Shown piece by piece: positions 32,598-35,013 of a DNA stretch of 64,000 nucleotides. Source of the stretch: Bdellovibrionales bacterium (GTDB lineage: Bacteria > Bdellovibrionota > Bdellovibrionia > Bdellovibrionales > JAKFYE01); NCBI GenBank assembly GCA_021731045.1, contig JAKFYE010000026.1, positions 32,027 through 96,026 on the forward strand. Reading direction: 5' to 3'. The notes below the pieces were generated by a model. That model saw only the letters and a program-made list of their open reading frames with translations. It was not told the DNA's origin and did not search any database. Each line of letters starts with the position of its first letter. The first letter of the stretch is position 1. The position numbers and the translations under genes are program-made.

Positions 32598-33955
32598 GAG
32601 AAAATTGTGGGATCTCCTGCTTTTGCGGTTAATCGACCATTGTGCCAAAGACCCATGCGCTCCATCCACTTTTCAAATTCGGGAGTTGGTTTGTAATTAA
32701 AAACAGTTCTCAGCGAAGCGTTGTCATGAAAACTTGTCGACTGATAATTCAACATCACATCGTCACCCATTGGTAAACTCATCAAATAATTCACCCCAGC
32801 GGCTGCCAGCAAAATCGCTAAATCCTCTTGATCATTTTGATCGGCGACGGCGTGATTGGTATAGCAGTCATCGCAGCCCATGCTAATTCCTGAAAGTTTT
32901 CCCATAAAATGATCTTCGAGACCTGCACGAATAATTTGTTTAGCATCATATAAATATTCAGGGCCGATAAAACCCACGACGGAATTCACCAAAAATGGTT
33001 TGTATCTGCGGGCGAGCGCATACGCGCGGGCCTCCATCGTCAATTGATCGGCACCGTGATGACCGTTGGCACTGAGCGCGGTCCCCTCACCGGTTTCAAA
33101 ATACATCACGTTGGGGCCTTTGGCCGAACCTTTTTTGAGAGTCATGTCGTAAGCTTCATCTAAAAGTTTAATGGTCACACCAAATTCGGCATTTGTGATT
33201 TCACTGCCCGCAATACTTTGAAACATTAAATCTAGAGGCGCGCCTTTTTCTAGTGCACGCATTTGCGTGACCAAATGGGCGAGCACGCAGTTTTGCGTAG
33301 GAATACGATATTTATTCATCAACTCTTTTGTGGCCGAAAGAATTTCGTAGCAACTTTCGACTCGATCTGTTGACGGATTAATTCCTAAAACCGCATCGCC
33401 CGTTCCGTAAGAAAACCCTTCTTTCGCCCCGCTAATAATGCCTTCGACATTATCGGTGGGATGATTCGTTTGGAGTCGCGAAGAAATTCGCCCTTCAAGC
33501 CCTACGGTGGAATTGCAATGTACCACCACGCGAATTTTTTTAGCCGCCACGATCAAATCCATATTCGACATGCATTTCGCGACGGCCGAAATCGCTTCGG
33601 GAGTGAGGCCCGGTGAAATTTTTAAGACGTCGTCTCCTGAAGTCGTATCTTGCAAAAGCCATTCTCGTAGCTGAGAAACCGTCCAATTTTTTGTTTTTGC
33701 AAATGCGTCTTTATCGAGGGAATCAATCGCGAGTCGCGTGATCTCGTCGATTTCGTATGGCACAACCGGATTTTCAAATAATTCATGCAGGGTGACTTCA
33801 GAAAGTAAAATTTTAGCGACGACGCGCTGGCGTGTATTTTCGGCTGCTATGCCGGCCATTTGATCTCCCGACTTCAGCTCATTGGCTTTTGCGAGAAGAT
33901 CTTTTAGACTTTTAAAGTTGTAAGAGGCGCCCCACATTTGCGTCGACAATCGCAT
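32594..33955 (-). CDS. eutB: Ethanolamine ammonia-lyase heavy chain
   Basis: LLAKAN..SGD, RLQTNHPTD, GDAVLGINP, YFETG, NSVVGFIGPEYLYD; 453 aa from ATG 33955. Confidence 0.97.
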   Translation of the reverse strand: MRLSTQMWGASYNFKSLKDLLAKANELKSGDQMAGIAAENTRQRVVAKILLSEVTLHELFENPVVPYEIDEITRLAIDSLDKDAFAKTKNWTVSQLREWLLQDTTSGDDVLKISPGLTPEAISAVAKCMSNMDLIVAAKKIRVVVHCNSTVGLEGRISSRLQTNHPTDNVEGIISGAKEGFSYGTGDAVLGINPSTDRVESCYEILSATKELMNKYRIPTQNCVLAHLVTQMRALEKGAPLDLMFQSIAGSEITNAEFGVTIKLLDEAYDMTLKKGSAKGPNVMYFETGEGTALSANGHHGADQLTMEARAYALARRYKPFLVNSVVGFIGPEYLYDAKQIIRAGLEDHFMGKLSGISMGCDDCYTNHAVADQNDQEDLAILLAAAGVNYLMSLPMGDDVMLNYQSTSFHDNASLRTVFNYKPTPEFEKWMERMGLWHNGRLTAKAGDPTIFS

Positions 33956-34010: not shown

Positions 34011-34267
34011 TCGTCATCCTGAGCGAGCATCGTCATCCTGAGCGAGCATCGTCATCCTGAGCGAGCATCGTCATCCTGAGCGAGCATCGTCATCCTGAGC
34101 GAGCATCGTCATCCTGAGCGAGCATCGTCATCCTGAGCGAGCATCGTCATTCTGAGCGAGCATCGTCATCCTGAGCGCAGCATCGTCATCCTGAGCGAGC
34201 ATCGTCATCCTGAGCGAGCATCGTCATCCTGAGCGAGCATCGTCATCCTGAGCGCAGCGAAGGATCT
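34011..34267. repeat. Tandem array of 13 copies of a 19-bp REP-like unit TCGTCATCCTGAGCGAGCA
   Basis: 12 near-identical units (unit 8 has C>T, unit 9 has a 1-nt insertion) plus a final complete palindrome GTCATCCTGAGCGCAGCGAAGGATCT; no spacers. Confidence 0.97.
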
Positions 34268-34387
34268 CGTCGTCTTCTGGAAGAGCCAGTTTGTAAATGG
34301 AGCGAGTGCGGTTAGCCTTCCACTTATCCCCTTCAATGTTTCAAAACAGGACTGCTGAATTGAATCCAAGATGGGAGAGCTAAATAA

Positions 34388-34519
34388 CTACAAAAGCTTA
34401 TAAAGTTTCATCGCAATTTCGACCAATCCCAACAAATTCTTTAGAATCAAAGACCACAGACCAATCTCCTCTAAAGTTTGCCGCAATCGGAACCGATATT
34501 TCTTATGTCTGTCGGACAT
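34388..34519 (-). CDS. Small 43-aa basic/amphipathic peptide, candidate type I toxin
   Basis: Below the ORF-track cutoff. MSDRHKKYRFRLRQTLEEIGLWSLILKNLLGLVEIAMKLYKLL*; AAGGAGG SD inside a CCTCCT-GAAA-AGGAGG hairpin (34524-34539). Confidence 0.6.
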   Translation of the reverse strand: MSDRHKKYRFRLRQTLEEIGLWSLILKNLLGLVEIAMKLYKLL

Positions 34520-34553
34520 AAAACCTCCTTTTCAGGAGGGGACTAAAGCTTCG

Positions 34554-34581
34554 GGCCGCGTAACCGCGGCCTTTTTCTTTT
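34554..34581 (+). terminator. Orphan Rho-independent terminator (candidate antisense-RNA 3' end)
   Basis: GGCCGCG-TAAC-CGCGGCC followed by TTTTTCTTTT; no + strand CDS upstream of it. Confidence 0.75.
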
Positions 34582-35013
34582 CAAATTAGAGACCGGGATT
34601 AGAAGCAATCAAAGTCGTCGAAAGATTAAAACTTCCGAGACTCGAGTGAGAGTCTCATTGAAATACGATCGTAGAAGTCACAGGCATGTGGAAAGGGTAA
34701 TCGCATAGTGCGAAAACCTTCTTTGCCTGAATCTTTCCGAGCGCAAGAGCGACCATTTTCATTTAAATTCGATACAAGGATTGAGCCCGCCATTGTCACT
34801 TCTTAACGGCCGGATCTAACTAACTCTCAGTCTGCGCTGGACTAATTTTCGTACCGTTGAGTTTAAGGGCAAAAAAGCTATTCCTTGAAATTCAACTCAC
34901 GAAGTGAGAGGTTGATCTCAATGAAATCAGCCACATAATTGGTGTTCGTGCCGTATTCGGGTTGGTCCACGATGGTTAGGCCGATACAAAATTTGAAAGG
35001 AATGAACATTTCT

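Follow-up and report, generated by a model that had tools for sequence, protein, structure and literature searches.

A 64,000-nucleotide (nt) stretch of the genome of a Bdellovibrionales bacterium (contig JAKFYE010000026.1, positions 32,027 to 96,026; here called the window) carries on its minus strand a short open reading frame (ORF) with a heavily structured leader. This locus is probably one copy of a previously unnamed type I toxin-antitoxin (TA)-like family in Bdellovibrio-like bacteria. The ORF is a real gene for a small membrane-type protein under purifying selection. The leader is predicted to lock the Shine-Dalgarno (SD) sequence and the AUG each in a local hairpin, and a canonical intrinsic terminator, predicted to act on the opposite strand only, is present in every member examined. 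A type I TA module had been proposed here in an earlier note made from the sequence alone. The architectural part of that proposal holds (a selected membrane peptide, covarying SD sequestration, an opposite-strand terminator, and multiple copies), whereas its functional part, antisense neutralization and toxicity, stays conditional: we infer both the antisense RNA and the toxicity of the peptide, which together define a type I TA system. All coordinates given below are window coordinates, and the genome of the window (G000) is a 2.58-Mb assembly of 47 contigs that is 83.5% complete.

The ORF had not been annotated before. It consists of 43 codons and a stop codon (34388..34519, minus strand) and encodes the peptide MSDRHKKYRFRLRQTLEEIGLWSLILKNLLGLVEIAMKLYKLL, identical to the translation quoted in the earlier note. 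The start codon (ATG, 34517-34519) is separated by TTTT from the SD sequence AGGAGG. As AGGAGG-N4-ATG is the most frequent SD spacing of this genome (40 of 541 AGGAGG sites), the ORF has a first-class initiation signal. That the SD sequence is locked in a CCTCCT-GAAA-AGGAGG hairpin had been claimed and proved correct: in the predicted fold (34524..34539, minus strand), the anti-SD CCUCCU (34534-34539) pairs across the GNRA loop GAAA with the SD AGGAGG (34524-34529), 4 nt away, and UUUU-AUG follows. Directly abutting this hairpin is a second one, absent from the earlier account, in which the AUG is predicted to lie within a 9-base pair (bp) stem (UUUUAUGUC-CGACA-GACAUAAGA; 34501..34523, minus strand) whose loop falls in codons 2 to 4. 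The twin SD and AUG hairpins fold with z = −5.0, and none of 200 shuffled sequences was as stable. Sites with a CCTCC-N3-9-GGAGG hairpin number just 14 in the 2.58-Mb genome, and 4 of the 14 are copies of the module.

The opposite (plus) strand carries the intrinsic terminator GGGCCGCG-UAAC-CGCGGCCU, followed by UUUUCUUUUC (34553..34582), the putative 3′ end of an antisense RNA, of read-through transcripts, or of both. The 8-bp stem, with seven G-C pairs and the loop TAAC, spans 34553-34572, the tail TTTTCTTTTC extends up to 34582, and the terminator lies 33 nt upstream of the ATG of the ORF. A clean opposite-strand terminator had been reported at 34554-34581, nearly the same limits, with the remark that there was no plus-strand gene to terminate. 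This remark is true of the window copy but fails for the three other copies in the genome, each of which is located downstream of a gene on the strand of the terminator.

The conserved leader, a probable 5′ untranslated region (UTR), covers 34520..34647 (minus strand), as delimited by the similarity among the four copies in the genome. From 5′ to 3′, a conserved block (CTCGAGTCTCGGAAGTTTT) is followed by a variable ∼40-nt linker, after which come an A-rich run, the G+C hairpin and the SD hairpin. A predicted stem that closes the leader (GAAGUUUU/GAAGCUUU) is maintained through one-sided changes in copy C3, and the 271-nt sense RNA folds with z = −3.3. A further hairpin had been placed upstream, at about 34637-34656. 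This inverted repeat (GAGACTC-N6-GAGTCTC; 34637..34656, not assigned to a strand) exists in the window copy, but only its ORF-proximal arm falls within the repeated element; the 5′ arm lies outside it and is absent from copy C8. The position of the hairpin is homologous to that of a small hairpin, TCCGA-N3-TCGGA, that is conserved ∼125 to 140 nt 5′ of the ATG in genus g25, the second genus in which we found the module.

The genome of the window holds three ORF-bearing copies of the module and one leader-only copy. Paralogous loci had been named in the earlier note as a way of checking its proposal, and both the peptide and the leader have them: the peptide has two paralogues (98% and 92% identity), and a DNA search returned four copies at E ≤ 2.8e−34, the remaining 18 of the 22 matches listed being chance matches of 14 to 19 nt. 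The contigs from four DNA runs yielded the same four paralogues only. The window copy (C10) is intact, with no neighboring gene on the terminator's strand and with eutB downstream on the strand of the ORF. Copy C8 is also intact and has a ruvB-like gene on the terminator's strand. Copy C38 has a lolD-like gene on that strand; its last five codons are swapped for a long hairpin, and the frame extends to 106 amino acids (aa). Copy C3 consists of the leader only, ends at the ATG, and lies ∼40 nt from the stop codon of an mltG-like gene. The hairpin that takes the place of the 3′ end of the ORF in C38 (L006, ∼1440-1495) is a perfect one of ∼24 bp, situated between the module and the convergent lolD-like gene.

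All four copies are identical from the A-run to the ATG, over the G+C hairpin, the linker and the SD hairpin, and this includes the terminator, although the adjacent ∼40-nt linker 5′ of this invariant stretch has diverged heavily. Similarity among the copies reaches 65 nt past the terminator on the upstream side of the ORF. Differences at codons 2 to 4 of the ORF-bearing copies are confined to the loop of the AUG hairpin (CGACA, UAGUC, and CACAC) and leave the stem unchanged, and the AUG hairpin folds in all three of them (z = −4.3 to −5.2). On inspection of the window-genome copies, neither terminal inverted repeats nor target duplications were visible at the ends of the element.

Outside this genome, the first lead was a 40-nt DNA match (E = 2.8e−4) in a relative, G031, where the architecture is shared and the peptide is different. 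We then searched 384 genomes of the order for the pattern GGAGGTTTTATGTC-N5-GACATAA with at most two mismatches. The search found 14 places in 10 genomes, against none with the reversed control, and nine of these places are modules: three in the window genome and six in four of the eight genomes of g25, a genus of another family (f10). The remaining five places do not carry the module: in three g31 genomes, the match lies at the start of a long gene, and the other two are a frame of 3 codons and one of 89 aa. By this pattern search, no genus among the 384 genomes other than that of the window genome and g25 carries the module. A covariance model built on six g25 leaders was run on 151 genomes and identified six copies in G031, two of which are 773 nt apart; four of the six are intact, another is shortened to 27 aa, and the last is disrupted. 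Of the 25 places that the model found outside G000 and G031, 24 were read, and 22 of them are plain A-run/hairpin/T-run terminators without an SD-preceded ORF, as is one place in the window genome (G000:C7:1328-1416). The remaining two, both in G101 (genus g31), are a related module. These G101 loci (L061:1501-1596, minus strand; L077:1501-1591, plus strand) have an A-run, a G+C hairpin and an anti-SD/SD hairpin, in one case with a GCAA loop, followed by an ORF of 32 aa whose product has a basic head and a very hydrophobic tail, with SSCS or TSCS as the last residues. They may represent a sister family in another genus.

At the protein level, a profile of eight members matched 11 proteins of 39 to 75 aa at E ≤ 0.01 among 199 candidates. 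One of these is the C8 paralogue of the window genome, and the 75-aa protein was apparently called from an upstream start. All 11 are unnamed or labeled "hypothetical protein" and lack Pfam domains. When the single peptide was searched against 5.8 and 1.8 billion proteins, only the paralogue and two ∼840-aa proteins were retrieved, the latter of which by eye look like translations of tandem repeats. Exact patterns taken from the linker of the window genome had no matches in genome contigs (two scans) and one in metagenome contigs, a chance 20-mer without further likeness; these patterns were too specific to the window genome and therefore missed the relatives found later. Small-frame peptide matches at E values of 0.01 to 0.08 over the 384 genomes (L019 and L029 were read) were due to chance and had neither an SD sequence nor an ATG. 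The neighbor genes of the modules are unrelated to one another. Overall, the module shows the behavior of a selfish element, as it is multicopy, has tandem and broken copies, is patchily distributed, and occurs in unrelated neighborhoods, all of which speaks for a TA-like family.

The nine ORF-bearing loci share one fold: an A-run, the G+C hairpin, a linker, the SD hairpin (in eight of nine; G065 differs), and the AUG hairpin. A longer equivalent of the SD hairpin, UCUCCUCU..AGAGGAGG, is present in five of the six g25 loci first studied. An opposite-strand terminator with a T-run is located at −34 to −66 from the ATG in all nine loci, and the SD hairpin with its UUUU scores as terminator-like on the mRNA strand in eight. 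For covariation, we used a model-fitted alignment of 17 rows (14 family members, two rows from the related G101 module, and one reverse-strand row), in which 90.4% of the helix cells were paired (80.8% in shuffles), 18 of 29 pairs were altered on both sides (7.1 ± 1.7 in shuffles), and the covariation score was 0.255, compared with 0.108 ± 0.011 in shuffles (0 of 500 as high) and 0.04 to 0.09 in slid controls. Both-sided changes affect 6 of the 11 pairs of helix 1 (terminator) and, somewhere in the alignment, 9 of the 10 pairs of helix 3 (AUG), and 93% of the cells of helix 2 (SD) are paired. Some examples of covariation are clear in their own right: the G+C stem reads GCGACC/GGTCGC, GCGGCC/GGCCGC, or GGCCGCG/CGCGGCC, and in the AUG stem, the G031 copies have U-A, C-G, or A-U as the fourth pair. 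SD sequestration is thus conserved and covarying across the family.

We also used wobble pairs to assign each helix to a strand, as a G-U pair on one strand corresponds to an A-C mismatch on the other. Counted over 16 rows (the reverse-strand row was dropped), the G+C helix of the terminator has 1 G-U pair and 14 A-C mismatches on the mRNA strand, the latter being G-U pairs on the opposite strand. The corresponding mRNA-strand counts are 7 and 3 for the SD helix and 15 and 4 for the AUG helix. By this asymmetry, the mRNA is the strand on which the SD and AUG hairpins are built to form, and the opposite strand is that of the G+C hairpin. On the opposite strand, the terminator loop is GNRA in five of six g25 loci, and on the mRNA strand, the SD-hairpin loops of the window genome are GNRA as well (GAAA, or GAGA in copy C8).

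Selection on the peptide was evaluated from the ratio of nonsynonymous to synonymous substitution rates (dN/dS) over codons 1 to 39 of eight intact g25-type ORFs (28 pairs, of which three with saturated, undefined dS and one with dS > 3 were left out of the median). Over the 24 pairs, the median dN/dS was 0.24 and the maximum was 0.56, indicating purifying selection; conservation of the ORF, on which the earlier note had made its proposal depend, is therefore evident. Invariant columns are concentrated at codon position 2 (25 of 39), with 11 at position 1 and 6 at position 3, and the length of the ORF stays within 41 to 43 aa in the intact copies of five genomes. The peptide plan is the same throughout the family: a basic 20-residue head (MS-x-RHK.. 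R.FSKKTK.RLE) is followed by a hydrophobic stretch of ∼20 residues. In the relatives (41 to 42 aa), this C-terminal half is strongly hydrophobic (for example, YFLVLQIFSIIMLLLSQF). The peptide of the window genome is a divergent member, with 22 to 34% identity to the others. AlphaFold models it as a single helix over residues 4 to 42 (predicted local distance difference test score [pLDDT], 89.8), and its net charge is +5, which bears out the basic N terminus and amphipathic C-terminal helix described earlier. The hydrophobic moment of the peptide is moderate, and the Kyte-Doolittle mean over 19 aa peaks at 1.62 (residues 19 to 37). The family peptides are thus shorter than 60 aa and hydrophobic or membrane directed, as expected of type I toxins, the window version being borderline in hydrophobicity. 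The basic N-terminal half is probably cytoplasmic. As the stem of the AUG hairpin (ATG TC. ....GA CAT AA.) encodes the conserved MS-x-RHK head, RNA and protein constraints coincide there.

If the module operates as a type I TA system, the SD and AUG hairpins would hold the nascent mRNA untranslatable and so prevent cotranscriptional translation, and the SD hairpin with its UUUU may stop some sense transcripts ahead of the ORF. The opposite-strand RNA would end at the terminator. It may have a dedicated promoter, located within the ORF or past it, or be read-through from a convergent gene. Fully complementary to the SD sequence, the start codon and the codons right after it, this RNA would prevent translation, cause the duplex to be cleaved, or both. 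Upon loss of the antisense RNA and remodeling or processing of the leader, the peptide would be made, insert in the inner membrane, and harm the cell or arrest its growth. Known type I systems, aapA/IsoA among them, operate in this way (in part from PMC6733600 and PMC8594479).

Several observations weigh against this interpretation. A scan for σ70-like consensus sites gave a convincing promoter for neither strand of the module. The best antisense candidate is a weak σ70-like site inside the ORF, TCGACC-17-TAGAAT (34419..34447, plus strand; 9 of 12 consensus matches), which would yield an RNA of ∼128 nt with its 3′ end at 34582. It is retained in the three ORF-bearing copies of the window genome, and five of the six substitutions in the ORF body of copy C38 fall within its 17-nt spacer. 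The number of plus-strand sites of this quality (two with 9 of 12 matches, compared with 1.2 ± 1.3 in shuffles) is no better than chance, the candidate is not conserved in the other genus, and any such site occurs in only one of six loci there; the earlier note, too, had seen no convincing antisense promoter. On the sense strand, no site with at least 9 of 12 matches was found within 150 nt 5′ of the leader except in copy C38, whose promoter-like site (TTCACA-17-TATCTT) has no counterpart in the other copies. Furthermore, seven of the nine ORF-bearing loci, as well as the leader-only copy, have a gene on the terminator's strand that ends upstream of the terminator (197 to 392 nt past the ATG in the seven), and in six of these seven, a scan of that strand revealed no other terminator-like site before the module's own. 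The opposite-strand RNA may therefore be read-through or the 3′ UTR of a neighbor, instead of or beside a dedicated small RNA, and the terminator may simply serve the convergent neighbors. The covariation values lean toward structure because their alignment was fitted to the model, and it includes the two G101 rows and the reverse-strand row. Finally, the window peptide is less hydrophobic than classical type I toxins, with K27, N28, E34, and K38 in its helix, and its Kyte-Doolittle mean barely reaches the threshold of 1.6.

The convergent arrangement also allows a form of the TA system, unlikely in our judgment, in which the module has no antitoxin promoter of its own and sits tail to tail behind a host gene. 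The transcript of that gene would continue antisense through the ORF, the AUG and the SD sequence as far as the terminator built into the module. The role of antitoxin would fall to the 3′ UTR of an unrelated neighbor, such as ruvB, lolD, or hpt, and silencing of the toxin would be tied to transcription of that neighbor. In this scheme, the copy that lacks the ORF and lies behind mltG would serve as an antitoxin-only decoy, as its SD region matches that of the other copies with 100% identity.

A type I TA module has to be weighed against an ordinary small membrane protein that is not toxic, such as a stress-induced regulator of a membrane complex, whose hairpins would hold translation off until a signal, a helicase or processing released it and whose terminator would end or insulate convergent transcription. 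Such a protein would be consistent with the purifying selection on the ORF, with the failure to establish an antisense promoter, with a window peptide that is amphipathic rather than plainly hydrophobic, and with the convergent gene at seven of nine loci, in six of which the terminator of the module is the first terminator-like site. However, housekeeping small proteins rarely occur in three to six diverged copies per genome with tandem pairs and broken copies, and their genes are rarely absent from half of a genus and nearly all of an order and seldom move among unrelated neighborhoods. The terminator, moreover, accompanies the module even without a convergent gene (the window copy and G065), and we consider this explanation unlikely.

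Two further explanations take the ORF to be something other than a working gene of its own. In one, the functional unit is noncoding, either a mobile intergenic terminator cassette or a plus-strand gene for a three-hairpin small RNA, and the ORF is a passenger. An 86-nt plus-strand RNA (34500-34585) would indeed form three clean hairpins ending in the terminator (z = −4.5), the leader-only copy downstream of mltG retains the terminator and the SD hairpin without the ORF, and small RNA families of Rfam give subthreshold matches on the plus strand. We regard a noncoding unit as very improbable given that dN/dS is well under 1, that conservation has a period of 3, and that the length of the ORF is retained across diverged copies; in addition, the G-U pairs of the SD and AUG helices fit the mRNA strand and not the plus strand, similarity among the copies continues 65 nt past the terminator on the upstream side of the ORF, and the Rfam matches are far under their gathering scores (18.9 versus 41 bits). 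In the other, the ORF is a captured fragment (a cytoplasmic loop and the third membrane helix) of a zinc-ribbon PqiA-type membrane protein, now inert or a mimic of that helix. Residues 2 to 39 of the peptide are 42% identical to residues 122 to 159 of PqiA-family proteins of ∼200 aa in family f10 (hhalign probability, 93%; P = 3.5e−7), the real peptide scores 40.0 when none of 800 shuffles exceeds 21.5, and the only three matches of the PqiA-type profile in the window genome are the three ORF copies. True homology should strengthen when the family profile is used, yet with the eight-member profile the match drops to a probability of 16.5% (P = 0.0015; score, 22), which weakens the case for a PqiA origin. 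The Pfam PqiA model (PF04403) matches none of the eight members, and the per-genome E value of 7e−4 is the best picked from 384 genomes. The invariant R and D of the GRWSMLD motif are missing, with L at both columns; this type of PqiA was not found in the window genome or in two relatives from its family; and the module peptide forms one helix, in contrast to the four-helix protein. A captured fragment is thus a far-fetched explanation, and the resemblance to PqiA, as judged from sequence comparison, is probably not one of origin and stays unexplained.

Returning to the TA-like module, we examined the regions 3′ of the ORF. A 71-nt block (34305..34375, minus strand) has a counterpart in copy C8 alone (96% identity) and is possibly the 3′ UTR; it has no significant fold (z = −0.5). 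In copy C8, a 165-nt insertion with inverted-repeat ends separates the ORF from this block. An element of ∼165 nt with ∼34-nt terminal inverted repeats and a conserved interior (L005, ∼1761-1930; L038, ∼1545-1705) occurs once right after the stop codon of the ORF in C8 and once directly 5′ of the SD hairpin of a second small ORF, with a partial third copy on C23. In five g25 loci (L040, L041, L042, L049, and L050), the regions 40 to 110 nt past the stop codon of the ORF share the motifs TTTAGGGCTTARGTC and TCTGTGC. A block, GGAGA..GTCA..GGGGTCACC, is also conserved, and between the block and the motifs lies a hairpin whose sequence is wholly different at each locus. Judged by eye, this suggests a structured 3′ UTR. 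The TGAC motif in this region was considered as a promoter and rejected, as a −10-like partner occurs only at a spacing of 14 to 15, which is too short (by eye).

The second small ORF (L038:1378-1494, minus strand; G000:C3, ∼106080-106200) also has a sequestered SD sequence (CCTCC-GTAA-GGAGG, AGCCTT, ATG). Its 38-aa product combines a basic head with an amphipathic Trp/Leu/Lys tail, and the ORF lies between a Flp-pilin-like gene and microcompartment shell genes. The product has no BLASTP likeness to the 43-aa peptide (E = 0.94), and an opposite-strand terminator was not found nearby. Another sequestered site, CCTCCT-TCTAG-AGGAGG, TGTC, ATG, precedes a 29-codon frame on the minus strand of G000:C20, ∼4076 from the far end of the contig. 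Between the window module and eutB, a 19-nt tandem repeat (TCGTCATCCTGAGCGAGCA) spans 34011-34254 in 12.8 copies with 98% identity, and a weaker array of the same unit is located at G000:C14:85241-85307. From its N-terminal sequence, the true start of eutB is probably near 33955.

Tiny peptides and fast-evolving RNAs make type I TA systems difficult to detect. The locus is a compact case open to experiment, as its three adjacent hairpins bear the strand-specific signatures of two transcripts that overlap, and it raises the question of whether the 3′ UTR of a neighbor gene can act as an antitoxin. More speculatively, a self-toxin that acts on the membrane and is controlled by RNA could play a part in growth arrest or in the transition between the attack and growth phases. 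A literature search, judged from titles and abstracts, turned up no work on type I TA systems in Bdellovibrio.

Finally, we compared the module with known systems. At E ≤ 10, the window peptide matched no family in Pfam, NCBIfam, or PADLOC, and Pfam matched none of eight family members; the window peptide is thus not recognized by the models for named type I toxins in Pfam and NCBIfam (Hok, Ldr, TisB, ShoB, Ibs, Fst, DinQ, and others). With Rfam 15, no family reached its gathering score on either strand; there were four subthreshold matches, the best of which was suhB/mmgR (18.9 versus 41 bits; E = 0.5). This agrees with the earlier note, which did not recognize the family: no known toxin, antitoxin-RNA or Pfam family matches it, and it has neither a name nor a domain in the protein collections searched.

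Type I toxin mRNAs have as a hallmark an anti-SD that lies within a few nucleotides of the SD sequence and leaves the primary transcript untranslatable (PMC6733600). The aapA/IsoA systems of Helicobacter pylori resemble the module in having several chromosomal copies, a peptide of ∼30 to 40 aa, and an SD sequence trapped by a nearby anti-SD in local hairpins (PMC6733600). The antisense RNA of aapA is encoded in cis and overlaps with the mRNA in its 5′ portion (PMC6733600); in the window module, the antisense RNA is putative. The two differ in that they share no sequence similarity and that the AUG has a hairpin of its own in the window module. The aapA mRNAs are activated through a 5′-3′ long-distance interaction and 3′ trimming. 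In the window genome, the 3′ block is without a significant fold, and in g25, the 3′ hairpins covary as judged by eye.

With hok/Sok and ldr/Rdl, the module shares a small membrane peptide, a folded and untranslatable primary transcript, and, putatively, an antisense RNA over the initiation region (in part from PMC6733600 and PMC8594479). A mok-type leader ORF, as in hok/Sok, was not seen in the module. The peptides of hok/Sok and ldr/Rdl have their hydrophobic helix at the N terminus, in contrast to the module, where it is C-terminal and follows the basic 20-residue head. TisB, DinQ, and ShoB-type toxins are likewise short helical peptides that mix Leu and Ile with a few Lys or Glu residues, and ShoB has a basic head and a hydrophobic tail. 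In ESM-Atlas feature space, the nearest named clusters are TisB (0.80) and DinQ (0.76), both below the trust level of the tool. No sequence relationship to these toxins is detectable. The TisB, DinQ, and ShoB systems have divergently encoded small RNAs, whereas the module has a terminator embedded in the leader of the toxin itself.

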